Origin: Thermodesulfobacteriota bacterium
GTDB lineage: Bacteria; DASVDK01
Assembly (NCBI GenBank): GCA_036381125.1
Contig: DASVDK010000177.1
Coordinates: 6,104 to 70,103 of the forward strand
DNA length: 64,000 bases
Direction of reading: 5' to 3'
Every line of letters begins with the position of its first letter. Within the stretch, counting starts at the first letter, position 1. The translations under genes and the position numbers were made by a program. Shown piece after piece: positions 13,416-50,803 of the stretch. Below the pieces are notes generated by a model. That model searched no databases. It was given only the letters and a program-made list of their open reading frames with translations, and had not been told where the DNA came from.

Positions 13416-13685
13416 GGCGGGGCTCCTTCCTCGTATCGGGGGCGCGGCCTGCACGACCGCGCCGCGTGATCTCCTGCGCGGGAGCGAGAGCAGGAGCCGT
13501 GCCGGTCCCGGTGCGCGGGGCGGGAGACGGTCGAAAAGGGACGTGCGGACGAGGAGTTGCGGAGATGTCGCCGGTGCGGCCCGGCCGCGGCGACCGCGCC
13601 GCGGCCGGCGGCGTGCTTCACGCTGCAACGCGAGTGCTCCAGATCGGATCAGGGGAGCCCGATCCGGATCGCCGACGGCGAGCCG

Positions 13686-14105
13686 CTACCGCGCGGCGTA
13701 CCGGCGGGCGAGGTGGCCGGCGAGCATGCCGAGCGCGTAGAGGAGGCTCGAGGCGCTCCACCAGAAGACGAGCCCCCCGATCCAGAACGTGGCGCCCGCG
13801 TCCTCGGGGACGCGCGCGGCGGCGCTCCCCGGGTCGAGCATCGCCGGCACGAAGCGGAACGCGACGAGGACCAGGGAGGCGCCCCAGCCGAAGCCGAGGA
13901 CCTCCCGGAACGTGCGCAGGCGGATGCCGAAGGCGAGGACGACCAGCAGGCGCGGCGCGAGGATCGCCGCCGCACCGGCTCCGAGCGGGTAGAGCACCTG
14001 CTCGCCGAGGACGATGGCCGCGGCCAGGGCGGCGAGGCTCGCGAGGAACCAGCCGACCGGGAAGGGGGCCTCCGGGGGGGGCGCGCCCCCGGTCGGACCG
14101 GACAC
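13686..14105 (-). CDS. small hypothetical membrane protein (about 139 aa, 4 predicted TM)
   Basis: Hydrophobic ORF whose GTG start abuts the ilvD stop (taGTG). Only this part of the 262 aa track ORF avoids overlapping ilvD. Confidence 0.45.
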   Translation of the reverse strand: MSGPTGGAPPPEAPFPVGWFLASLAALAAAIVLGEQVLYPLGAGAAAILAPRLLVVLAFGIRLRTFREVLGFGWGASLVLVAFRFVPAMLDPGSAAARVPEDAGATFWIGGLVFWWSASSLLYALGMLAGHLARRYAAR

Positions 14106-15784
14106 TAGCCGGTCACCGCCCCTTCGGACGCGGACGACACGAGCTTCGCGTACTTCGCGAGCACGCCGGTCGTGTACATCGGCTTCGGCGGCTTCACCGC
14201 CTTGAGGCGGCGCTTGAGCTCGGCGGCGGAGAGCTCCACGTCGAGCCGCCGCTTCTTGATGTCGATCGCGATGACGTCGCCGTTCCTGATCGCGGCGATC
14301 GGTCCCCCGTCGGCCGCCTCGGGCGCCACGTGGGCGATCATGAAGCCGTGCGTGGCCCCGGAGAAGCGTCCGTCGGTGATGAGGGCGACCGAGCCGCCGA
14401 GGCCGGCCCCCTGCAGGGCGGCGGTCACGTGCAGCATCTCGCGCATGCCGGGGCCTCCCTTCGGCCCCTCCCACCGGATGACGACCACGTCACCCGGCTT
14501 GATCTTGCCCGCCTTCACCGCCGCGAAGGCGTCCTCCTCGCGCTCGAAGACGCGGGCGGGGCCGCGGTGGGCGTCGCGGCTCTGGCCCGAGACCTTCGCC
14601 ACGCACCCGTCGGGGGCGAGGTTGCCCCTGAGGATGACGAGGCCGCCGTAGCTCTTGAGCGGCTGGTCGACGGGGCGGATGACCGTCTGCCCCTCGGGCT
14701 CGCGCGCCGCGCGCGCCTCCTCGCCGATCGTCCGGCCCGTGACCGTCTTCTCGTCGGGGTGGAGGAGGCCCGCCTCGAGCAGGCGCTTCGCCACGACCGC
14801 CATGCCGCCCGCCTCGTACATCTCCGGCGCGGTGTAGCGGCCCCACGGCTTCATGTCGGCGAGGACCGGCACCTTGCGGGCGATGCGGTCGAAGTCGTCG
14901 ATGGAGAGCCTGACGCCCGCTTCGCGCGCGACGGCGAGGAGGTGCAGGACGGCGTTCGTGGAGCCGCCGGTCGCCATCACGCCGGCGATCGCGTTGAAGA
15001 GCGCCTTGCGGGTGATGATCTGCCGCGGGAGCAGGCCGCTCCTCAGCACCTCCATCATGATCCGACCGGTCTCGAACGCCGCGCCGCCCTTGTCCTTGTG
15101 GAGCGCGGGGACGCCGTTGGCGCCCATGGGCGACACGCCGAGCATCTCGAACGCGGTCGCCATCGTGTTGGCCGTGAACTGGCCGCCGCACGCCCCGGCG
15201 CCGGGGCAGGCCCGGCTCTCGATCTCGCCGAGTTCGCAGGCGTCGATCCGCTTCGCGTTGTACGACCCGATCGCCTCGAAGACGTCCTGGATCGTGAGCC
15301 GCCGGTCCTTGTACTCCCCGTACATGATCGAGCCGCCGTAGAGCAGGACCGACGGGATGTTCAGGCGCGCCATGGCCATGGCCATGCCCGGGATGGTCTT
15401 GTCGCAGCCGGCGATGCCGACGAACCCGTCGAGCCCGTGACCACGCACCACCAGCTCCACGGAGTCGGCGACCAGCTCCCGGCTGACGAGGGACGCCTTC
15501 ATCGCCTGGGTACCCATGGAGATGGCGTCGTTCACCGAGATCGTGTTGAACTCGATCGGCGTGCCGCCGTTCGCGCGGATGCCGTCCTTCACCTTCTCGG
15601 CCACCGCCCGGTGGTTGAAGTTGCAGGGGGCGATCTCGATCCAGCAGTGCGCGACCCCCACCAGGGGCTTGCGGAGGTCGTCGTCGGTGAAGCCGATCGC
15701 CTTGAACATGGCTCGGGCGGCCGCGCGGTCCGCGCCGTCGAGCAGGACACGGCTCTTGTGCCGGGCGTCGAAGGCCACGGTCAC
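14105..15784 (-). CDS. ilvD: dihydroxy-acid dehydratase
   Basis: 559 aa with the CPGAGACGG Fe-S cluster motif. Full-length and recognised as IlvD along its whole length. Confidence 0.95.
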   Translation of the reverse strand: MTVAFDARHKSRVLLDGADRAAARAMFKAIGFTDDDLRKPLVGVAHCWIEIAPCNFNHRAVAEKVKDGIRANGGTPIEFNTISVNDAISMGTQAMKASLVSRELVADSVELVVRGHGLDGFVGIAGCDKTIPGMAMAMARLNIPSVLLYGGSIMYGEYKDRRLTIQDVFEAIGSYNAKRIDACELGEIESRACPGAGACGGQFTANTMATAFEMLGVSPMGANGVPALHKDKGGAAFETGRIMMEVLRSGLLPRQIITRKALFNAIAGVMATGGSTNAVLHLLAVAREAGVRLSIDDFDRIARKVPVLADMKPWGRYTAPEMYEAGGMAVVAKRLLEAGLLHPDEKTVTGRTIGEEARAAREPEGQTVIRPVDQPLKSYGGLVILRGNLAPDGCVAKVSGQSRDAHRGPARVFEREEDAFAAVKAGKIKPGDVVVIRWEGPKGGPGMREMLHVTAALQGAGLGGSVALITDGRFSGATHGFMIAHVAPEAADGGPIAAIRNGDVIAIDIKKRRLDVELSAAELKRRLKAVKPPKPMYTTGVLAKYAKLVSSASEGAVTG

Positions 15785-15847
15785 ACCTCCCGTCGTGAGA
15801 AATGGTGGCTGCGGGGAAAACGCCGGAATTCTAGCACCAGGCGGGGC

Positions 15848-16774
15848 TCACGCGACGCTCGCCGGGTCGGTGTTGCCGCCGCAGACGAGGACGGCCACCC
15901 GCTCGCCGGCGCCCGGCCGGTAGGCCCCCGACGTCACGGCGGCCAGCGCCGCGGCGCCGCCCGGCTCCGCCACCACCCGGAGCGCCTCCCAGAGGGCGCG
16001 CTGGGCGGCGCGGATCGCCTCGTCGTCGACGAGCACCACCCGCTCGACGTGCGCCCGGGCCAGCGCGAACGCGAGGTCACCAACGCGCCTGGCGCCGAGG
16101 CTGTCGGCCGCGATCCCGCCCACCTCCACGTCCACCGGCCTGCCCACCGCCAGCGCCGCGTGCAGGGTTGGGGCCCGGACCGGCTCGACCCCGATCACGC
16201 GCACCCGGCCGGCGAACCAGGCGGCGGCGCCCGCGACGAGGCCGCCGCCCCCGACGGCGACGACCACCGTGTCGAGCCCGCCGGCCTGCCGGTCGAGTTC
16301 TCGGAACAGGGTCCCCTGGCCGGCCACGACCTCCGGCTGGTCGTAGGCGTGGACCACCAGGGCGCCGCTCTCCGCGGCCCGCCGGTCGGAGGCGGCCTTG
16401 GCGTCGGCGTAGGTCGCGCCGGTGACCGTCACGGCCGCGCCGTAGCGCCGGAGCCGCTCGACCTTCACGGGCGAGGCGACCTCCGGGACGAAGATCTCCG
16501 CCCGGTGGCCGAGCACGCGGGCCGCCCAGGCCACGGCCGCGCCGTGGTTTCCGCCGGAGGCGGCGATGACGCCGGCCGCCGGCACCTCGGCCGAGAGGAT
16601 CCGGTTCAGGGCGCCGCGCGGCTTGAAGGAGCCGGTGTGCTGGAGCGACTCGAGCTTGAGGACGAGCGGCGCGGCCGCGCCCAGGGCCCCTCCCTCCAGC
16701 GCGATCACGGGGGTCTCGCGCACGCGGCCGGCGATGCGATGCGCGGCCGCGTCGATGGCGTCTCGATCGACCAT
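15848..16774 (-). CDS. PLP-dependent threonine/serine dehydratase
   Basis: PLP lysine motif in ESLQHTGSFKPRGAL, plus the GGGGLVAG glycine loop. Confidence 0.85.
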   Translation of the reverse strand: MVDRDAIDAAAHRIAGRVRETPVIALEGGALGAAAPLVLKLESLQHTGSFKPRGALNRILSAEVPAAGVIAASGGNHGAAVAWAARVLGHRAEIFVPEVASPVKVERLRRYGAAVTVTGATYADAKAASDRRAAESGALVVHAYDQPEVVAGQGTLFRELDRQAGGLDTVVVAVGGGGLVAGAAAWFAGRVRVIGVEPVRAPTLHAALAVGRPVDVEVGGIAADSLGARRVGDLAFALARAHVERVVLVDDEAIRAAQRALWEALRVVAEPGGAAALAAVTSGAYRPGAGERVAVLVCGGNTDPASVA

Positions 16775-16838
16775 GCGGCTAGCCTAGCGCGGGTTCGGCC
16801 TGCTAGACTCCGCCACCGCGCGCCCGAGGAGGAGGACC

Positions 16839-17645
16839 ATGGTCGAACTCTGTCGCCGCATCGCCGAACATCCGGCGTTCCAGCACGTGATCCTGGTGGT
16901 CATCCTCGTCAACGCCGTCGTGATCGGCTTCGAGACGTCGCCCGCGGTCATGGCCCGGTGGGGCGGGTTCCTGCTCGGGCTCGGCACGGCGATCCAGGCG
17001 CTCTTCGTCGTGGAGATCCTCGTTCGCCTCGTCGCCTACTGGCCGCGGCTCGGCCGCTTCTTCACCGACGGCTGGAACGTCTTCGACTTCCTCGTCGTCG
17101 CGATCTCGCTCGCGCCGCAGGCCGGCCCGTTCTCGACCGTGGTCAGGCTCGCGCGGGTGCTGCGCGTCGCGCGCCTGCTGTCGGTGGTGCCGGAGCTGCG
17201 GCTCATCATCGGCACGATGCTCCGCTCGATCCCCTCCATGGGGCACGTGATCGCGCTCCTGTCGCTCCTCCTGTACATCTACGCCGTCGTCGGCTTCTAC
17301 CTCTTCGGCCGTCACGACCCGTCCCACTGGGGTTCGCTCTCGCAGGCCTTCCTCACTCTCTTCCAGATGCTCACGCTCGAGGGGTGGGTGGAGATCCAGG
17401 CGACCAGCATGGAGGCGGTGCCGCTCGCCTGGATCTACTACGCGAGCTTCGTCGTGGTCGCGGTCTTCGTCGTGATCAACCTGTTCATCGCGGTCGTCCT
17501 CAACAACCTCGAGCGGGCGAAGGACGAGGAGCAGGCGGAAGCCGACCGCAAGAGCCCGCAGGGCGCGCTCATCGAGCAGGTCGAGCGGCTCAAGGCCGAG
17601 CTCGCGCGGCTCGAGCGGGACCTGAGGGCGTCGGGGAGGTCCTGA
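16839..17645 (+). CDS. bacterial voltage-gated ion channel (BacNaV/NaChBac family), selectivity filter TLEGWVE
   Basis: 6TM architecture. S4 sensor VRLARVLRVARLL has Arg at every third position. The pore helix and filter read FQMLTLEGWVEIQ, and a C-terminal coiled-coil is present (ERLKAELARLERDLRA). Confidence 0.85.
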   Translation: MVELCRRIAEHPAFQHVILVVILVNAVVIGFETSPAVMARWGGFLLGLGTAIQALFVVEILVRLVAYWPRLGRFFTDGWNVFDFLVVAISLAPQAGPFSTVVRLARVLRVARLLSVVPELRLIIGTMLRSIPSMGHVIALLSLLLYIYAVVGFYLFGRHDPSHWGSLSQAFLTLFQMLTLEGWVEIQATSMEAVPLAWIYYASFVVVAVFVVINLFIAVVLNNLERAKDEEQAEADRKSPQGALIEQVERLKAELARLERDLRASGRS

Positions 17646-17826
17646 CTCCGGGGGGCGCGCTCGCCTCGTCCTCGTCGGCGAGGCGTTCCGTGCGATGCAG
17701 GCCCGTCGCTTCCGGGCGTCGGCGCTCCGATCTCCGGATGATGGCCCGTCAGTCACGCGGCCCGAGATCACCGATCTCCGCGACCCGGCGCCCGTCGTCG
17801 TGCGGGTGGAGAGCCCCCCGAGGGAT

Positions 17827-18084
17827 TTACCGGTCGCGATCGGTCGCCGGGCGCAGGTCGCTCGGGTACGTCGCCACGCGCTTGCGTTCCGCGCGGGACG
17901 GGGCGCCGGAGCCGTCGCTCTCGCCGTTCACCGTCTTGCCGGCCGGCATGGCCAGGGGCGAGGGGGCGGCGGTCTCGATTACCATGCGCCGGTCCCGGGC
18001 GATCTCCTCGATGGGCCTGGCGGCGGCAGGCGTGGCGGCGATGGCCGCGAGCGCGACGGCAAGCGCGACGAACGGGGTCTTCAT
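17827..18084 (-). CDS. small secreted protein, paralog B (85 aa)
   Basis: Signal peptide MKTPFVALAVALAAIAATPAAA. The core PLAMPAGKTVNGESDGSGAPSRAE aligns with paralog A. ATG inferred at 18084 inside the 143 aa track ORF. Confidence 0.6.
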   Translation of the reverse strand: MKTPFVALAVALAAIAATPAAARPIEEIARDRRMVIETAAPSPLAMPAGKTVNGESDGSGAPSRAERKRVATYPSDLRPATDRDR

Positions 18085-18530
18085 GGCGGCGGTCCTCGGG
18101 GAGGTACGCCCGCCCGGGGAGCATGCTTCGTGCCGGGGCGGGCAGTCACGCAAGAAATCGAAGAGAGACGGCCGCTTACGTGACACTCCTGTGAGGATCG
18201 CGGACTTCCCGCTGCGGCACGGCATTGCGAAACGGAACGACGCCCGCTCCACATGCAACAGAGCCTCGGCCCTCCGAATCGGAGCCTGCGTCGATCAGGG
18301 GCGGAAGCGCTGTACATTGGAGCCTCGCGAAGGTCCACATGGGACGATCGGAGTGACCGTATGGCCTGCGAGACGCCTTTCGTGCCCGCTTCTGGGGGCT
18401 CGTGTGCGATCGCTGGCGCGCGTGGAGCATCGGAGAAGCGCCCGTGTCCCTCTCCGAACTGGATCCCGAGATCGTCGCCGAACACGGTCCCGTGAATGCC
18501 AGCTTGCCGAGGCTCGTCCAGGCGCGGCCG

Positions 18531-19118
18531 CTACCCGGCCTGGAGGAGCCGCACGGCCCGCCCTTCTCGTGCGATCCGCCCCTCGGCCTCGAGCGCGGCG
18601 AGGGTCCGGTAGAGCGCTTCGTGCGTGAGGCCGATCTCGGCCGCGACCTGCTTGAGCGGACGATCGCCGCCGATCGCGCCGCGCGGGGCCAGGGCGAGGT
18701 ACTGGAGGACGCGCGCCCGCGCCGATCGGACGTTGCGCAGCTCGAGGCGCGCACGGAGCACCTGGATCTGCGCCGCCATCTGCCGCATGAAGCCTTCGGC
18801 GACCTCCGGGTCCGCGCGCAGGGCGCGCCTCACGGCCGCCCGGGGCAGCACCGCGACGCGCGAGGGGACCTCGGCCACGGCGTCGCAGTGGTAGCGGTCG
18901 GAGAAGAGCGCCGCCTCGGCGAACGTCTCGCCCGGGCGAGCCACGTGCACCGTCACGCCGACCCCCTCGCTCGTGTGCCGGACGAGCAGCACCCGCCCCG
19001 CCTCGACCACGAAGATCGCGGTCGTCGCGTACCCCTGTCGGAAGAGGGCTTCTCCGGCCGCGAGGTCGCGCCGCCGCGCGGAGTCGAGGAGCGCGGCGAA
19101 GGGGTCGGCCGCCGTCAT
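18531..19118 (-). CDS. Crp/Fnr-family transcriptional regulator
   Basis: cNMP-binding domain followed by a C-terminal HTH (QVAAEIGLTHEALYRTLAALEAEG). ATG at 19118 overlaps the stop of the upstream decarboxylase (ATGA). Confidence 0.8.
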   Translation of the reverse strand: MTAADPFAALLDSARRRDLAAGEALFRQGYATTAIFVVEAGRVLLVRHTSEGVGVTVHVARPGETFAEAALFSDRYHCDAVAEVPSRVAVLPRAAVRRALRADPEVAEGFMRQMAAQIQVLRARLELRNVRSARARVLQYLALAPRGAIGGDRPLKQVAAEIGLTHEALYRTLAALEAEGRIAREGRAVRLLQAG

Positions 19119-26513: not shown

Positions 26514-28017
26514 GGAGCCGCTTCACGCCCGGCGTGAGCTTCCTCCGACGCCACGCGTCCGCGGCCTTCCTCACGACCTCGGCCTGGGTGGGGTAGGGGT
26601 GGATCGTCCGGGCGATGGCGCCGAGGCCGATGCCGGCCGTGCAGGCGAGCGCGAGTTCGCCGACGATGTCCCCCGCGTGCTCGGCCACGATCGTGGCGCC
26701 GAGGATCCGATCGCCGCCGGCCTCGACGTGCACGCGCAGGAACCCCTCCGTCGCGCCGTCGAGCACGGCGCGGTCGACCTCCTCGAGCGGCACGGTGATG
26801 GTCTCCGCCGGGATGCCGGCCCGCGCCGCATCCGCTGCGGACATCCCGACGTGAGCGACCTCCGGGCTCGTGTAGGTGCACCGGGGCACCACGAGGCGCG
26901 AGGCCTTGCCGCGGCCGAAGAAGAGGGCGTTGGCCACGACGAGGCGCGCCTGGGCGTCGGCCACGTGGGTGAACTGGAGGCGCGAGCAGACGTCGCCGAT
27001 GGCGTAGACCCTCGGGTTCGTCGTGCGGAGCCGGTCGTCCACCGTCACGCCGCCCGGGCCGCAGGCGACGCCCGCCCGGGCGAGGTCGAGCGACTCGACA
27101 TTGGGCGTGCGGCCGGTCGCGACGAGGATCGCGTCCGCGACGACGGTCTCCAGCCGGCCGCCCTGTCGGACGTGGATCGCCGCCCCGGCGCCGCGCCGCT
27201 CCACCCGCTCGAGCGCGACCCCCGCCTGCACGACGACGCCGTCGCGCGTCATCGAGGCCTCGACCAGGCGCGCGGCGTCGGGGTCCTCCCGGGGCAGGAT
27301 CCGGGGCGCGGCCTCGAGCAACGTCACCCGGCTGCCGAACCGGGCGAACGCCTGCGCCAGCTCGCAGCCGGCGGCGCCCGCGCCGATCACCGCGAGGCGT
27401 TCGGGCAGGGACTCGAGCGAGAAGACGGTCTCGTTGGTGAGGGGGGCGGCTTCGGCGAGGCCGGGGACGGGCGGAATCGTGGGGCGCGCGCCGGTGGCGA
27501 TGACGCAGCGCCGGAAGACGAGCCGCGCGCCGTTCACCTCGACGGCGTCCGGGCCGGCGAAACGCCCCTCGCCGAGGAACACGTCCACGCCGAGGTCGCG
27601 GTAGCGACGGACGCTGTCGGTCTTCGAGAGGTCGGCGCGCAGCCGGCGCATGCGGCGCATCGCCGCGCCGAAGTCGCCCGGGCCCGAGACCGCCGGTGCG
27701 CCGAAGGCCTCGGCGCCGCGGCGGGTCTCGTGCCACGCGCGCGCCGCGCGAATCAGGGCCTTCGAGGGGACGCAGCCCACGTTGAGGCAGTCGCCGCCCA
27801 TGAGACGGCGCTCGACGAGCGCCACGCGAGCCCCGAGGGCGGCGGCCGCCGCCGCGGTGACGAGCCCGCCCGGCCCCGCGCCGATGACGACCAGGTGGTA
27901 GCGCGACTTCGGGTCGGGGTTGACGTAGCCGTCCGGGTGGACGTTGGCGAGGTGTCGGCGGTTCGCCTCGTCGAGCGGGTGGACGAGGCCGGGCGGACTA
28001 CCGTCCCGCGGCGGCAT
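26485..28017 (-). CDS. FAD-dependent pyridine nucleotide-disulfide oxidoreductase (mercuric reductase/dihydrolipoamide dehydrogenase family)
   Basis: FAD fold VVIGAGPGG, redox-active disulfide GGDCLNVGCVPSK and a C-terminal dimerisation domain. Confidence 0.8.
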   Translation of the reverse strand: MPPRDGSPPGLVHPLDEANRRHLANVHPDGYVNPDPKSRYHLVVIGAGPGGLVTAAAAAALGARVALVERRLMGGDCLNVGCVPSKALIRAARAWHETRRGAEAFGAPAVSGPGDFGAAMRRMRRLRADLSKTDSVRRYRDLGVDVFLGEGRFAGPDAVEVNGARLVFRRCVIATGARPTIPPVPGLAEAAPLTNETVFSLESLPERLAVIGAGAAGCELAQAFARFGSRVTLLEAAPRILPREDPDAARLVEASMTRDGVVVQAGVALERVERRGAGAAIHVRQGGRLETVVADAILVATGRTPNVESLDLARAGVACGPGGVTVDDRLRTTNPRVYAIGDVCSRLQFTHVADAQARLVVANALFFGRGKASRLVVPRCTYTSPEVAHVGMSAADAARAGIPAETITVPLEEVDRAVLDGATEGFLRVHVEAGGDRILGATIVAEHAGDIVGELALACTAGIGLGAIARTIHPYPTQAEVVRKAADAWRRRKLTPGVKRLLSALFRVRR

Positions 28018-39143: not shown

Positions 39144-40025
39144 TCAGCGTCCCGGCGCCCGCGCCTCCCCGCGAAGGGGCCCCCGCGCCTCGTCCTCCTC
39201 GCGGGCCGACCAGATGAGGAAGACGGTGGTGAGGGCGAAGAGCCAGAAGAACCCGCCCGCCACCCACATGATGAGCGCCCCGAGCTGCTGGTCGTAGAGG
39301 GCCGTCATGTCCGTGACCCGCGGCGCCTCGGCGTACCAGGGATAGAGCGGCTCGGTGGCGAGGGCGATGATCGCGCCCACGAGGGAGCCGGGCACGATCT
39401 GGAAGAAGAGATAGAGCATGGCGACCGGCGGCGCGAGCCTCGGCCAGCCGGGGACGCCGAGGGGGCCGCTGACGGGCCACCACATGATCACCGCGGTCAC
39501 CAGGTAGGCGAGGTGAAGCGCGATGTGGAAGTCGTGGTTCCGCATCTGCAGCTCGTACACGGGCACCACGTGGGAGACGGCGAAGAGGACGTTGAAGATC
39601 AGGAAGGCCGGCACCGGCCGCGTCACCCGGCGGCCGAGGGGGCCGATCACCCGCATGCGCGCGAGGGGCCGGAACGCCCAGGCCGGCATTCCGGCGAGGA
39701 GGAGCGGCGCCACGACCAGCGTCACGAGGAGGTGCTGCACCATGTGGACGCTGAAGAGGCAACAGTCGCCGTACTCGTGGATCGGACCGCTGAGCGCACC
39801 GAACATGACGGCGACCCCGGCCACGAAGGCCGCCTGCCGCGCGCGGTGAACCGGCGCCGACCCGGCGATCCGCGCGCGTCCCGGTCCGACGAGCCAGAAG
39901 TACCCGGCGAGAAGGGCGAGGCACCCGATGACGATGCTCGGGTGCCCGAGCCAGACGGTGAGCCCGTCGGGGACCGTGTAGGTCCCCGACGACGGGTCGA
40001 GGACGAGCGGATGGGAGAGGAGCAC
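39144..40025 (-). CDS. ctaG: cytochrome c oxidase assembly factor CtaG (Caa3_CtaG family) membrane protein
   Basis: Polytopic protein last in the cox operon. HMVQHLL…YELQMRNHDFHIALHLAYL motifs. Confidence 0.65.
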   Translation of the reverse strand: MLLSHPLVLDPSSGTYTVPDGLTVWLGHPSIVIGCLALLAGYFWLVGPGRARIAGSAPVHRARQAAFVAGVAVMFGALSGPIHEYGDCCLFSVHMVQHLLVTLVVAPLLLAGMPAWAFRPLARMRVIGPLGRRVTRPVPAFLIFNVLFAVSHVVPVYELQMRNHDFHIALHLAYLVTAVIMWWPVSGPLGVPGWPRLAPPVAMLYLFFQIVPGSLVGAIIALATEPLYPWYAEAPRVTDMTALYDQQLGALIMWVAGGFFWLFALTTVFLIWSAREEDEARGPLRGEARAPGR

Positions 40026-40029
40026 CCCG

Positions 40030-40356
40030 CTACCAGAGCCCCTTGAAGAGGGCGATGAAGGACAGGATCGTCGCCGTCGCCACCATGAGGCCGAAGAGGA
40101 AGAAGCCCGAGAAGATCCGGCTGTCGAACTTGAGGTGCATGTAGTAGGCGACGACGAGGGCGAACTTCAACGTGCCGAGCGCGAGGATCGTCGGGACGAG
40201 GATCGGCCGCAGGAAGGTCGCGTAGTAGGTCCAGACCTCGACCGCCGTGACGACGGTGAGGATGACGGCGATCTTCCAGTAGGTCGCGTCCGACGCGTGC
40301 GTCTGGTGCGCCGCCTGGTGGCCCGTCTGCGAGATGGCGTTGCCGTGGTCGCTCAT
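40030..40356 (-). CDS. cytochrome c oxidase subunit IV (prokaryotic CoxIV family)
   Basis: A 108 aa two-TM protein with YWKIAVILTVVTAVEV…, sitting between coxC and ctaG. Start inferred at MSDHG. Confidence 0.7.
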   Translation of the reverse strand: MSDHGNAISQTGHQAAHQTHASDATYWKIAVILTVVTAVEVWTYYATFLRPILVPTILALGTLKFALVVAYYMHLKFDSRIFSGFFLFGLMVATATILSFIALFKGLW

Positions 40357-40367
40357 GCGCGTGGCTC

Positions 40368-41000
40368 CTACGGGATCAGGTAGATGATCGCGAAGAGGAC
40401 GATCCAGACGATGTCGACGAAGTGCCAGTAGAGGCCGCAGATCTCCACGTTGATGGCGTTCGCCGGCGTGAGGCGGCCGGTGAACGACCAGAGGAAGAGG
40501 GAGAGCAGCCAGACGACCCCCACCGTCACGTGCGCGCCGTGGAACCCGGTCAGGGTGAAGAAGGTCGCGCCGAAGAGGTTGCCGCCGAGCGAGAGCCCCT
40601 TGTGATAGAACTCCGTGAACTCGTAGACCTGGAAGCCCACGAAGATCGAGCCGAGGGCGGCGGTCATGAAGATCCAGAAGCGGAACTTCCGCATGTTGCC
40701 GGCGGTGATGCCCGAGAGCGCCAGCACCATGGCGAGGCTGCTCATGAGGAGCACGAACGCGCTCACCGACGTGAGCGGGATGTTCAGGATCCCCTCGCCG
40801 AGCGCCGTCGTGTGCGGCGTCGGTCCGACGGCGTCCCGCCCCTTGTAGACGAGATAGGTCGCGATGAGCGACCCGAAGAACATGCAGTCCGAGCCGAGGA
40901 ACGCCCACCAGAGCATCTTGCGGTGGTCGAGCCCCGTTGCCGTCGCGTGCTCGACGCCGTGCGCGTCGAGGTGGGCGGTGGCGGAATGGGTTGCGGACAT
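40368..41000 (-). CDS. coxC: cytochrome c oxidase subunit III
   Basis: 210 aa with …FFGSLIATYLVY… and …TGFHGAHVTVGVVWL…. Confidence 0.9.
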   Translation of the reverse strand: MSATHSATAHLDAHGVEHATATGLDHRKMLWWAFLGSDCMFFGSLIATYLVYKGRDAVGPTPHTTALGEGILNIPLTSVSAFVLLMSSLAMVLALSGITAGNMRKFRFWIFMTAALGSIFVGFQVYEFTEFYHKGLSLGGNLFGATFFTLTGFHGAHVTVGVVWLLSLFLWSFTGRLTPANAINVEICGLYWHFVDIVWIVLFAIIYLIP

Positions 41001-41031
41001 GGGTTGTCGTCTCCTCGAGATGTCGTTCGGC

Positions 41032-42849
41032 CTAGCTGGCCGGCTCGAAGGCCCACGCGAAGAAGCCCGCGAGCATGATCCCCACGCCGGTCAGGAAGAC
41101 CGGCACCGAGTGCGAGACGCCGCCGGCGCCCATGGCCAGCAGGCCCACGGCGGCGAACGCCGGCCAGAACGACGGGTTCGGCAGGTGGATGCCGTGACCG
41201 TCGCCGGCCGTGACCCCGGTCTGGCTCCGCTCCTCCCAGAGCGGGTAGCGGCTCTGCACCGTCGGGACCACGGCGAAGTTGTAGGCCGGAGGCGGTGAGG
41301 GGATCGACCACTCGAGGGTCGGCGCGTCCCACGGGTTGACCGGCGCGCGGTCGCCGCTGCGCAGGCTCTTCATGAGGGTCCAGATGAAGACCAGGAACGC
41401 CAGCATGAGCACGAAGGCGCCGATGGTCGAGGCCATGTTGAGGCCGCCGAGCCCGAGCTCCTCGTGGTACGTGTAGATGCGGCGAGGCATCCCCAGGAGC
41501 CCGATCATGTGCATCGGGAAGAAGGTGAGGTTGAACCCGATCAGGGCGAGCCAGAACACCACCTTCCCGAGCTTCTCGTCGAGCATCTTCCCCGTCATCT
41601 TCGGGAACCAGTAGTGGAAGCCCCCGAGGAGGGCGAAGAGCGCCCCGCCGAACAGCACGTAGTGGAAGTGGGCGACGATGTAGTACGTGTCGGTCTGCTG
41701 CAGGTCGGCCGGCGGCGAGGCGTGGTGCACGCCCGACAGCCCGCCCATCGTGAACATCGCGATGAAGGCGACCCCGTAGAGCAGCGGCGTCCGCATCGCG
41801 ATGGACCCGCCCCAGAGCGTCGCGAGCCAGTTGAAGATCTTGACGCCGGTCGGGATGGCGATCGCCATCGTCGTGACGGCGAAGATCGCGTCGGCGAGCG
41901 GCCCCATGCCGACCGCGAACATGTGGTGCGCCCAGACGCCGAAGCCGAGCACGGCGATCCCGATGCCCGAGAGGATGACGAAGGGATAGCCGAACAGCGG
42001 CTTGCGCGCGAACGTCGGCAGCACCTCGGAGATGATGCCGAAGGCCGGCAGGATCAGGATGTAGACCTCCGGGTGGCCGAACACCCAGAAGAGGTGCTGC
42101 CAGAGCACCGGATCACCGCCGCCCTGCGGGATGTAGAAGTGCGTCCCGAAGTACCGGTCGAACGTGAGGAGGATCAGCGCGACCGTGACGACCGGAAACG
42201 CCAGGGCGACCAGGACGTTCGTGATGAGCGTCATCCAGACGAACGGCGGCATCCGCATCAGCCGCATGCCCGGCGCGCGGAGGTTCACGATCGTCACGAT
42301 GAAGTTGAAGGCCGAGGCGAGCGACGAGACGCCGAGGATCTGGAGCCCCACGAGCCAGTAGTCCACCGACTTGCCCGGCGAGTACTGCGGCGAGGTGAGG
42401 TTCGCGTAGCCGAACCACCCCGTGTCCGGCGCCGCCCCCGCGATCCAGCTCCAGTTCAGCACGAGCGCCCCGGCGAGGAAGACCCAGTAGCTGAACGCGT
42501 TGAGCCTCGGAAACGCCACGTCCCGCGCGCCGATCATGAGCGGCACGAGGTAATTGAAGTACATGGCGTTGAGCGGCATGATCGCCAGGAAGATCATCGT
42601 CGTGCCGTGCATCGTGAAGAGCTCGTTGTAGGTCTGAGCCGTCACGAGGTCGTTGTTCGGCACGGCGAGCTGCGTGCGGATGATCAGCGCCTCGATGCCT
42701 CCGAGCAGGAAGAAGACGAAGGCGCTCACACCGTAGAGGATGGCGATCCGCTTGTGGTCGACGGTGGTGATCCAGCTCCACACGCCGCCGGCGTACGGGC
42801 TCACCGCCGGGGCGGCGGCGGCCGTTGCGCCCATGGCTCTCGTCGTCAT
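41032..42849 (-). CDS. coxA: cytochrome c oxidase subunit I
   Basis: WFGHPEVYILILPAFGIISEV and HHMFAVGM copper/heme ligand motifs. ATG at 42849 overlaps the coxB stop (ATGA). Confidence 0.95.
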   Translation of the reverse strand: MTTRAMGATAAAAPAVSPYAGGVWSWITTVDHKRIAILYGVSAFVFFLLGGIEALIIRTQLAVPNNDLVTAQTYNELFTMHGTTMIFLAIMPLNAMYFNYLVPLMIGARDVAFPRLNAFSYWVFLAGALVLNWSWIAGAAPDTGWFGYANLTSPQYSPGKSVDYWLVGLQILGVSSLASAFNFIVTIVNLRAPGMRLMRMPPFVWMTLITNVLVALAFPVVTVALILLTFDRYFGTHFYIPQGGGDPVLWQHLFWVFGHPEVYILILPAFGIISEVLPTFARKPLFGYPFVILSGIGIAVLGFGVWAHHMFAVGMGPLADAIFAVTTMAIAIPTGVKIFNWLATLWGGSIAMRTPLLYGVAFIAMFTMGGLSGVHHASPPADLQQTDTYYIVAHFHYVLFGGALFALLGGFHYWFPKMTGKMLDEKLGKVVFWLALIGFNLTFFPMHMIGLLGMPRRIYTYHEELGLGGLNMASTIGAFVLMLAFLVFIWTLMKSLRSGDRAPVNPWDAPTLEWSIPSPPPAYNFAVVPTVQSRYPLWEERSQTGVTAGDGHGIHLPNPSFWPAFAAVGLLAMGAGGVSHSVPVFLTGVGIMLAGFFAWAFEPAS

Positions 42850-43889
42850 TTGAGGCTCCCGAGGTAGGCGACCAGGGCCTGCACGGTCTCGTCGTTCAGG
42901 TTGAGGTTGGGCATCTTCGACCCGGGCTTCACCGCCGGCGGGTTCCTGAGCCACCGCGCGAGGTTCTCCGGGGTGTTCGGCATCATGCCTGCCGCGATGG
43001 TGTGGCGGCGGGCGAAGTACGTGAGGTCGGGCCCGATGACGCCGGCAGCGGGCGTGCCCGCGATCCGGTGGCACCCGATGCAGGCGCTGGTGATGAACGC
43101 CTGAGCACCTTTGGCCGCGAGCGGATCGGTCGTGTCCGGCGGCTTCGGGGCCTTGAAGTCCTGGACCCAGCGGTCGAACTCCGCCGGCTCGGCGACCACC
43201 ACGCGGAAGCCCATGTTGGCGTGCGAGGCGCCGCAGAACTCCGCGCACTGGCCCCAGAAGAGGTCGGCGACCTGCGGGGTCAGGCTGATGTGGTTCACGT
43301 GGCCGGGAACGAGGTCACGCTTGCCGCCGAGCTTCGGCGCCCAGAAGCTGTGGATCACGTCCGCCGACTCGAGGGCGATGTCGACCTTGCGCCCCCTGGG
43401 GAGCCAGAGGTCGTTCGCCGTGACGATGTCGAGCTGCGGGTAGCGGAACTCCCACCACCACTGGTGCCCGATCGCACGGACCTGCAGGTTCTCCTCGGCG
43501 GGCGGCGCCTGGGTGTCGAAGATCGTCTGCACGGTCGGCACCGCCACCGACGCCAGGATGAGCGCCGGGGCGAGCGTCCACGCGATCTCGATCCGGGTGT
43601 TGCCGTGGACCTGGGCCGGAAGCGGCTGGCCGGGCCTGCGGCGGAACCGGAAGATCGCATAGATCAACAGGACCTCGACCAGGATGAAGATCACGATGGA
43701 CCACCAGATGATGGTCCAGAAGAGGTCGTTGATGGTATGCGCGAAGTCCGAGTGCGGATCCATGGCGTTCTGGACGTACTCGCCAGCGCAACCGGACAGC
43801 AGGATCGTCAGAGCCGGGAGGACGACACCGGACAGGAAGCGGACCCGTCCGGGCCGCGCGTATGTGCCGTGTGCCACGCTGTGGACCAC
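42846..43889 (-). CDS. coxB: cytochrome c oxidase subunit II with fused C-terminal cytochrome c domain (caa3-type)
   Basis: CuA site HSFWAPKLGGKRDLVPG…CAEFCGASHANM, then CIGCHRI heme-binding in the C-terminal extension. Lipoprotein-like N-terminus. Confidence 0.9.
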   Translation of the reverse strand: MVHSVAHGTYARPGRVRFLSGVVLPALTILLSGCAGEYVQNAMDPHSDFAHTINDLFWTIIWWSIVIFILVEVLLIYAIFRFRRRPGQPLPAQVHGNTRIEIAWTLAPALILASVAVPTVQTIFDTQAPPAEENLQVRAIGHQWWWEFRYPQLDIVTANDLWLPRGRKVDIALESADVIHSFWAPKLGGKRDLVPGHVNHISLTPQVADLFWGQCAEFCGASHANMGFRVVVAEPAEFDRWVQDFKAPKPPDTTDPLAAKGAQAFITSACIGCHRIAGTPAAGVIGPDLTYFARRHTIAAGMMPNTPENLARWLRNPPAVKPGSKMPNLNLNDETVQALVAYLGSLK

Positions 43890-50422: not shown

Positions 50423-50515
<93 letters not shown>

Positions 50516-50563
50516 TCTGTGGAGGCGGGGTGCCCGGGGCGCCCCGCGTCGCCTGCATGCCCC

Positions 50564-50657
50564 GGAGAGATGTCCGAGTGGTTGAAGGAGCACGCCTGGA
50601 GAGCGTGTAGGCTGGCTCAAACCGGCCTCGAGGGTTCGAATCCCTCTCTCTCCGCCA
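50564..50657 (+). tRNA. tRNA-Ser (anticodon GGA)
   Basis: Same acceptor stem, anticodon loop CUGGAGA, long variable arm, TTCGAATCC T-loop and a 3' CCA. Confidence 0.9.
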
Positions 50658-50689
50658 GACACGCAGCAGCCCCGCCAGGCCGGCGCCGT

Positions 50690-50803
50690 GAGCGGTGGTC
50701 GCTGGGTCCTTCGCAACGGAGCGCGGCGAACCCCGCCAGGTCCGGAAGGAAGCAACGGTACCCGTTTCCTCCGTGTGCCGAAGGGGTGCCTAGCGATCAC
50801 CCT
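50690..50803 (+). ncRNA. ffs: signal recognition particle RNA (4.5S/ffs-like)
   Basis: Contains CAGGUCCGGAAGGAAGCA (helix 8 motif) and GUGUGCCG. The 5' GGUGGUCGCUGGGUCC can pair with the 3' GCCUAGCGAUCACC. It sits upstream of dnaX as in scr-dnaX-ybaB-recR arrangements. Ends are approximate. Confidence 0.7.

Follow-up and report, generated by a model that had tools for sequence, protein, structure and literature searches.

We here describe a complete gene for a one-domain, six-transmembrane voltage-gated cation channel in a 64,000-nucleotide stretch of contig DASVDK010000177.1 from a Thermodesulfobacteriota bacterium (assembly GCA_036381125.1); the whole stretch is referred to as the window. 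The gene (16839..17645, + strand, 268 residues), recognised from its open reading frame (ORF), its Pfam Ion_trans match, PDB matches and Foldseek, belongs to the 'ancestor-like BacNav' (AnclNav) group of bacterial sodium channel relatives, and its selectivity filter, TLEGWVE, departs in a single residue from that of CavMr, the native voltage-gated Ca2+ channel (CaV) of Meiothermus ruber. Based on the filter, on the placement of the protein and on comparisons to characterized channels, Ca2+ selectivity is plausible, and we consider this prediction somewhat more probable than its negation.

Overall architecture and voltage sensor

The ATG-started ORF runs uninterrupted to its stop codon, and the start is supported by homologues, which align from residue 1. 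Pfam Ion_trans (PF00520) covers residues 11-231 and profile positions 1-240 of 241 with an E-value of 4.7e-46, a match far beyond chance. The best one-domain sequence matches in the PDB are bacterial sodium channels (4bgn, 5e-55; NaChBac, 2e-52; NavAb, ~1e-46, the last entries being identified as NavAb through Foldseek), and four-domain eukaryotic CaV and voltage-gated Na+ channels outscore these bacterial entries only through summing over four domains. A search of a representative library, with a top 150 consisting mostly of eukaryotic four-domain channels, added little beyond the size of the family. In an AlphaFold model built on 28 homologues (mean predicted local distance difference test score, pLDDT, 76.6), the helices match S1-S4, the S4-S5 linker, S5, P1, P2, S6 and a long C-terminal helix, i.e. 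the six-transmembrane layout of an S1-S4 sensor followed by an S5-P-S6 pore, and NavAb, CavAb and NaChBac are the top Foldseek matches of this model, each with a probability of 1.0. The BacNav architecture proposed in a first-pass annotation of this DNA, made from the letters alone, is thereby confirmed.

The voltage-sensor domain, S1-S4, spans residues 12-116 (16872..17186; this and all further channel features lie on the + strand), as delimited by AlphaFold helices and alignment. Its S4 segment, VVRLARVLRVARLL, carries Arg at every third position, as had been read initially, namely R103, R106, R109 and R112 (RLARVLRVAR, 17145..17174), which align to the gating charges R1-R4 of NavAb and CavMr. 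Together with the counter-charges E32, E59 and D83 and the hydrophobic constriction residue F56, these arginines align with their counterparts in NavAb, NaChBac and CavMr and are invariant in an alignment of 28 homologues with 60-84% identity, to which the residue conservation given below also refers.

The S4-S5 linker helix (residues 118-129, PELRLIIGTMLR, 17190..17225) holds the stretch ELRLI[IV][GS]TM, among the most conserved of the family, and is followed by S5 (residues 132-156, 17232..17306), both being AlphaFold helices with exactly these limits. The pore-lining S6 comprises residues 197-226 (17427..17516), according to the alignment and an AlphaFold helix starting at residue 197. Within S6, the invariant Ala218 (17490-17492) occupies the site of NaChBac G229 and CavMr G240, where the substitutions G229A and G240A were engineered to slow inactivation; with Ala218 at this site, the native channel may inactivate slowly. 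The predicted C-terminal coiled coil fits a segment at residues 243-263 (17565..17627), delimited by inspection of the sequence, in which L244, V248, L251, L255, L258 and L262 follow a d-a-d-a-d-a heptad register along a continuous AlphaFold helix (residues 240-265), and of which L255, L258, E259 and R263 are each at least 90% conserved. Within the reach of sequence and fold evidence, the assignment as a channel and that of its voltage-sensing machinery are secure.

Compared to the orthologue in a related metagenome-assembled genome (MAG; L002, 93% amino-acid identity), the ratio of nonsynonymous to synonymous substitution rates is ~0.25, and the gene is therefore under purifying selection. 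It is a real and maintained gene. An identical protein is deposited in GenBank as HEX7126158.1, 'ion transporter [Thermodesulfobacteriota bacterium]', a generic annotation that stems from the lack of any NCBIfam family covering the protein; the sole NCBIfam match, to a transient receptor potential (TRP) family, is spurious and far below cut-off.

Selectivity filter and family placement

The P1 pore helix (residues 167-178, LSQAFLTLFQML, 17337..17372; AlphaFold helix 167-178) includes Gln176 at position -3 from the filter and is followed by the selectivity filter itself, T179-L-E-G-W-V-E185 (positions 1-7, 17373..17393); pore helix and filter together read FQMLTLEGWVEIQ over residues 175-187 (17361-17399). 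No other TLExW motif exists in the six reading frames of the window. The register of the filter was derived from three independent alignments, i.e. MAFFT with 30 reference channels, BLASTP against CavMr and phmmer against domain I of Cav3. All three agree: TLEGW (residues 179-183) is a T-x-E/D-x-W filter between P1 and P2, in register with TLESW of NavAb and NaChBac, and the complete filter aligns to TLESWSM of NavAb and TLEGWVD of CavMr. Gly182 consequently stands opposite Ser178 of NavAb, the Ser of NaChBac and Gly4 of CavMr (CavMr Gly186), and a position of the Gly outside the filter register was rejected. Hence, the alignment check called for by the first-pass annotation upholds its placement of the Gly, and its account of the CavMr filter, with Gly4 as determinant, matches the published record (PMC7041947).

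Both CavMr-type determinants are present in the protein, Gly182 at position 4 and Val184 at position 6, and position 7 is occupied by Glu185, the extra acidic filter residue typical of AnclNavs. The filter is not that of canonical Na+-selective BacNavs (TLESW[AS][SM], having Ser4 with small or neutral residues at positions 6-7), as Gly4, Val6 and Glu7 replace Ser, Ser/Ala and Met/Ser, respectively. All filter residues but V are invariant among the aligned homologues, and V is conserved in at least 90%. Downstream, the P2 helix and a short P2-S6 turret span residues 186-193 (17394..17417); here the MAFFT and BLASTP alignments, the latter with an 18-residue gap, reveal neither the ~18-residue Cys-containing P2-S6 loop of CavMr and NavPp nor a Cys pair. 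The filter Trp and the S6 Trp are one residue closer together than in NavAb, a spacing shared with AnclNav sequences.

Neighbour-joining trees with Kimura distances, calculated from the sequences deposited with Shimomura et al. 2020 (PMC7041947) and our protein, place the latter inside the AnclNav branch, apart from the Bacillus and NavAb-like groups, and group it with an 'Acidobacteria bacterium' AnclNav (88.5% bootstrap, 55% identity). The AnclNav branch comprises a long-loop half, with CavMr and NavPp each having the ~18-residue Cys-containing insertion between P2 and S6, and a short-loop half, in which the protein described here is found along with Nitrosococcus and Mariprofundus (TLEDWTD), a Pseudomonadales MAG (TLEGWVD) and Thaumarchaeota (TLEGWVE and TLEGWID).

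Filter types among relatives

T[LMV]EGW[VIA][ED] is found in all of the 120 best homologues in the database (60-100% identity), 113 of which have exactly TLEGWVE. The Gly filter is therefore no unusual variant; sequences of the sub-clade, with TLEGWVD or TLEGWVE, were already part of the 2020 tree data, and the family is large and common among uncultured bacteria of soils. A genomic survey with one genome per GTDB species yielded 80 loci, all in MAGs, from Vicinamibacterales and other Acidobacteriota, Rokubacteria/Methylomirabilota, Binatia, Eisenbacteria, Chloroflexia, Gemmatimonadales, Planctomycetota, Polyangiaceae, and Beta- and Gammaproteobacteria. Two filter types dominate these loci, TLEGW[V/I/L][E/D] (n=51) and TLEDWTD (n=22); TLEGWPD, TLENWPD and TLDGWVD occur once each, and four of the 80 loci were left unmatched by the filter-type scan. 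Two paralogous TLEGWVE channels, each with ~60% identity to ours, reside on different contigs of the Candidatus Binatia MAG SMAG_U13297 (L010 and L030), indicating that the channel can be duplicated within a genome.

Positions -3, 4 and 6 vary together. In the 80 relatives combined with the references, Asp4 is accompanied by Thr6 and Arg at -3 in every case (29/29), as in NavPp, and Gly4 by V/I/L at position 6 in 61/73 and by Gln/Glu at -3 in 64/73, the CavMr-like combination. In a neighbour-joining tree built without the filter columns, a group with TLEGWV[D/E] (once Q) lies between TLEDWTD groups among the beta- and gammaproteobacterial relatives, which suggests that the G/V and D/T filters have interconverted more than once. 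Since positions 4 and 6 interconvert the selectivities of CavMr and NavPp experimentally, the natural pattern fits two functional classes.

Proposed mechanism and ion selectivity

We propose that four copies of the gene product assemble into a cation channel activated by depolarisation. The C-terminal heptad helix would form a four-helix bundle that holds the tetramer together. Upon depolarisation, the four S4 arginines would move against E32, E59 and D83 across the F56 constriction, and this motion would pull on the S4-S5 linker, opening the S6 gate. In the pore, predicted to be of CavMr type, the four Glu of position 3 would form a ring that Gly4 widens and exposes, and Val6 together with an acidic outer ring formed by position 7 would complete the filter. 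The most likely consequence is that Ca2+ would be conducted in preference to Na+ and K+, and a channel with such a preference would let Ca2+ into the cell upon a voltage trigger. The property that defines a CaV is a high measured permeability of Ca2+ over Na+, with a permeability ratio PCa/PNa above 100.

Published mutagenesis supports this assignment. Wild-type CavMr (filter 183-TLEGWVD-189) has a PCa/PNa of 218, with Gly4 as key determinant, and the ratio falls to ~12 in G4S, ~8 in G4D and ~40 in V6T, mutants in which the exclusion of monovalent ions collapses (PK/PNa ~0.7-1.5), whereas D7M keeps 144 (PMC7041947). The protein described here has both residues that matter, Gly4 and Val6, and the sole difference from the CavMr filter, D7E, is a conservative change at a position that D7M shows to be tolerant. 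NavPp carrying the CavMr filter reaches a PCa/PNa of 215 (PMC7041947), and the authors concluded that the filter sequence predicts selectivity within AnclNavs (PMC8677417). The covariation of positions -3, 4 and 6 among the relatives and the identical filter in domain I of Cav3.3 point the same way. The literature searched contains no paper with TLEGWVE in its text, and a description from February 2026 still has CavMr as the sole native prokaryotic CaV identified (PMC12919392).

Several observations weigh against Ca2+ selectivity. The only two characterized AnclNavs, CavMr and NavPp, are both long-loop channels; our protein lacks the ~18-residue Cys loop and falls into the other, short-loop half, and the P2-S6 loop of CavMr and NavPp may tune selectivity according to a review (PMC10120453). 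Position -3 is Gln, as in NavAb, and not Ser as in CavMr, the pore module shows hardly more identity to CavMr (44%) than to NavAb (41%), and the deep nodes of the tree are weak, with 43-56% support. In addition, a NavAb chimera with the full CavMr filter gave no current (PMC7041947), so that portability of the filter is shown for CavMr and NavPp only. The most direct counter-example, from the same laboratory in 2026, is NavAb S178G ('LivAb', TLEGWSM), which is Li+-preferring with a PLi/PNa of 2.2 and a PCa/PNa <0.01 (PMC12919392). Gly alone is thus insufficient, and Gly4 works only in the right pore background.

Of the alternatives to Ca2+ selectivity, the strongest is that the channel is selective for monovalent ions, i.e. 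Na+, possibly Li+ over Na+, as in 'LivAb', with Ca2+ permeating poorly or blocking. The TLEGW core is shared with NavAb S178G, Gln at -3 and the short turret are common to our protein and NavAb-type channels, and the pore identities to NavAb and CavMr are about equal. However, NavAb has Ser6 and Met7, whereas the filter described here has the CavMr-like Val6 and Glu7, and Met7 contributes to the exclusion of Ca2+, as M181A alone raises the Ca2+ permeability of NavAb about tenfold (PMC12919392). Moreover, the phylogeny places the protein among the AnclNavs rather than in the NavAb-like group, and it is in AnclNav backbones that filter sequence predicted selectivity (PMC7041947, PMC8677417). We therefore regard monovalent selectivity as unlikely, although worth serious attention.

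Alternatively, the short-loop scaffold may miss the CavMr geometry, resulting in a poorly selective channel that passes Ca2+, Sr2+, Na+, K+ and Cs+ with a PCa/PNa of roughly 1-15, resembling CavMr G4S or the CavMr-Pp mutants. That single changes to the CavMr filter (G4S, G4D, V6T) suffice to bring PK/PNa close to unity lends some credence to this, as does the divergence from CavMr in Glu7, in the residue at -3 and throughout the P2-S6 loop. On the other hand, TLEGWVE is strictly conserved across phyla, with all seven residues identical in the great majority of the best homologues, and the filter types are discrete, which argues for a filter tuned for a specific selectivity and not drifting. 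Poor selectivity is accordingly rather improbable in our estimate. That the protein is no autonomous voltage-gated plasma-membrane channel at all, being non-conducting, partner-dependent or a voltage sensor or leak only, is very improbable: two of the four AnclNavs cloned in 2020 (Halomonas, Teredinibacter) gave no detectable current in Sf9 cells, but the failure to obtain a current in a foreign expression system counts for little, all residues of the filter and S6 set are, like the gating charges and their counter-charges, invariant under purifying selection, and no conserved neighbour suggests a partner.

Extending Ca2+ selectivity to the whole short-loop TLEGW[V/I/L][E/D] clade, with its TLEDWTD sisters as Na+ channels, is a tentative step, which we consider possible but would not quite count on. 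The clade in question covers Acidobacteriota, Rokubacteria/Methylomirabilota, Binatia, Chloroflexia, Thermodesulfobacteriota, Burkholderiales and ammonia-oxidising Thaumarchaeota. If true, voltage-triggered Ca2+ entry would be common in uncultured soil prokaryotes and no curiosity of Meiothermus, Ca2+/Na+ selectivity would have been toggled repeatedly via the coupled positions -3, 4 and 6, and a loop-less minimal homotetramer would carry the exact filter of domain I of T-type CaVs.

The 2020 study and its data already cover the family, the part played by the Gly and even members of the sub-clade, and the protein is a further uncharacterised member that holds no surprise for specialists. It is nevertheless a good experimental candidate, being short and loop-less, with a native Ala at the slow-inactivation site. 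As a distant short-loop channel with a Gly4/Val6 filter, it allows a test of whether this filter is sufficient for Ca2+ selectivity throughout the AnclNav scaffold, and the natural split between G/V and D/T filters offers ready-made paired natural variants. It would also serve as a smaller structural template, and no AnclNav occurs among the PDB matches listed. A second such CaV would suggest a wide occurrence of voltage-gated Ca2+ signalling among soil bacteria and archaea; should the channel instead turn out to be Na+-selective or non-selective, it would join NavAb S178G as evidence that the pore background overrides the filter.

Genomic surroundings

The GC content of the window is 71-76%. 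Directly 5' of the channel ATG lies a Shine-Dalgarno-like sequence, GAGGAGGAGGA (a GGAGG repeat, 16826..16836, + strand), as read from the sequence. A scan for promoters and terminators around the gene found none and is uninformative at 74% GC. Likewise, a six-frame search for R..R..R..R was uninformative, since the DNA of the window is Arg-rich and high in GC. A 1720-codon open frame (13466-18628, +) running across the channel gene and its two upstream neighbours was rejected as an artefact, as stop codons are rare at 74% GC; many overlapping long ORFs of the same kind occur throughout the window.

Genes for a dihydroxy-acid dehydratase (IlvD, 14105-15784) and a pyridoxal-phosphate-dependent (PLP) enzyme (15848-16774) lie upstream of the channel on the other strand and are transcribed divergently from it; a Crp/Fnr-type regulator follows downstream in convergent orientation. 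A look-up of the contig with the identical GenBank protein yielded a 1.4-kb contig only, and thus no further gene context. In an all-against-all BLASTP comparison of the ORFs within 5 kb of the channel at 81 loci, no neighbour gene recurs across the TLEGWVE loci. Thus, the amino-acid metabolism neighbourhood noted initially exists as far as IlvD and the PLP enzyme adjoin the channel, but, being divergent and lacking a conserved neighbour, it is uninformative on function; a functional link to either enzyme was rejected because of the orientation and because, outside the window, this gene order was found only at the 93%-identical locus L002. The channel gene stands alone, without a conserved partner gene.

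Shared neighbours were found only among closely related gammaproteobacterial TLEDWTD loci, which is ordinary synteny. There (L025, L029, L038-L045 and others), guaB-, guaA- and xseA-like ORFs and a secreted-peptidase-like ORF lie upstream and a ferrochelatase-like ORF downstream, as judged by motifs, and this arrangement appears to reflect lineage synteny and no functional operon.

The idea that the genome is Myxococcales-like finds no support in the GenBank labels, which are Thermodesulfobacteriota for this MAG and likewise not Myxococcales for its closest relative. Elsewhere in the window, GC dips to 0.63-0.70 against a background of ~0.74 at 39144-43889 (-), over a cluster for a caa3-type cytochrome c oxidase (CtaG assembly factor, subunit IV, COX1, and COX2 fused to cytochrome c). 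The dip probably reflects the composition of hydrophobic membrane proteins and not foreign DNA, and the presence of the cluster points to an aerobic respiratory chain in this Thermodesulfobacteriota-labelled MAG. At 50423-50798 (+), two tRNA-Ser genes (CGA, GGA) are immediately followed by a small bacterial signal recognition particle RNA (Rfam RF00169, 74.8 bits). ARAGORN further calls an 84-nt tRNA-Arg (GCG) at 27318-27401 (-) that is unreported by the Rfam tRNA model at its gathering threshold; the call could be false, or the tRNA an atypical one.

Comparison to known channels

The closest functionally characterized system is CavMr (ZP_04038264), likewise a one-domain, six-transmembrane AnclNav, with the same four S4 arginines and counter-charges and 41% identity and 63% similarity to our protein over 267 residues (BLASTP, E-value 8e-60). 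Six of the seven filter residues are identical, including Gly4 and Val6. Apart from the loop and position -3, the two differ in Glu7, which is Asp7 in CavMr, and in Ala218, which is Gly240. NavPp of Plesiocystis pacifica, an AnclNav with ~37% identity, conducts Na+ and is blocked by Ca2+. Its filter, TLEDWTD, is the alternative type found in many close relatives of the clade described here, and it has Asp4, Thr6 and Arg at -3 where our protein has Gly4, Val6 and Gln. Swapping exactly the differing filter residues of NavPp rendered it Ca2+-selective (PMC7041947).

Within the short-loop sub-clade, the 'Acidobacteria bacterium' (55% identity) and 'Pseudomonadales bacterium RIFCSPLOWO2' (45%) channels have TLEGWVD, and the thaumarchaeal homologues have TLEGWVE, as here, in Nitrosocosmicus and Nitrosotenuis and TLEGWID in Nitrososphaera. 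In Shimomura et al. 2020, these bacterial and thaumarchaeal channels appear as source-data sequences only, none being expressed or individually discussed. 'LivAb' (PDB 9UC3) is a homotetrameric BacNav that shares the TLEGW core and a short turret with our protein, but it is engineered, belongs to the NavAb-like group and retains Ser6 and Met7, with Li+ conducted over Na+.

Outside prokaryotes, the filter recurs in T-type CaVs. Domain I of human Cav3.3, FQVITLEGWVEI, and the corresponding segment of our protein, FQMLTLEGWVEI, share an identical seven-residue filter, TLEGWVE, and nearly the same P2-S6 spacing. Cav3.1-3.3 are four-domain channels with asymmetric filters, whereas in the proposed homotetramer the same residues would be contributed by all four subunits.

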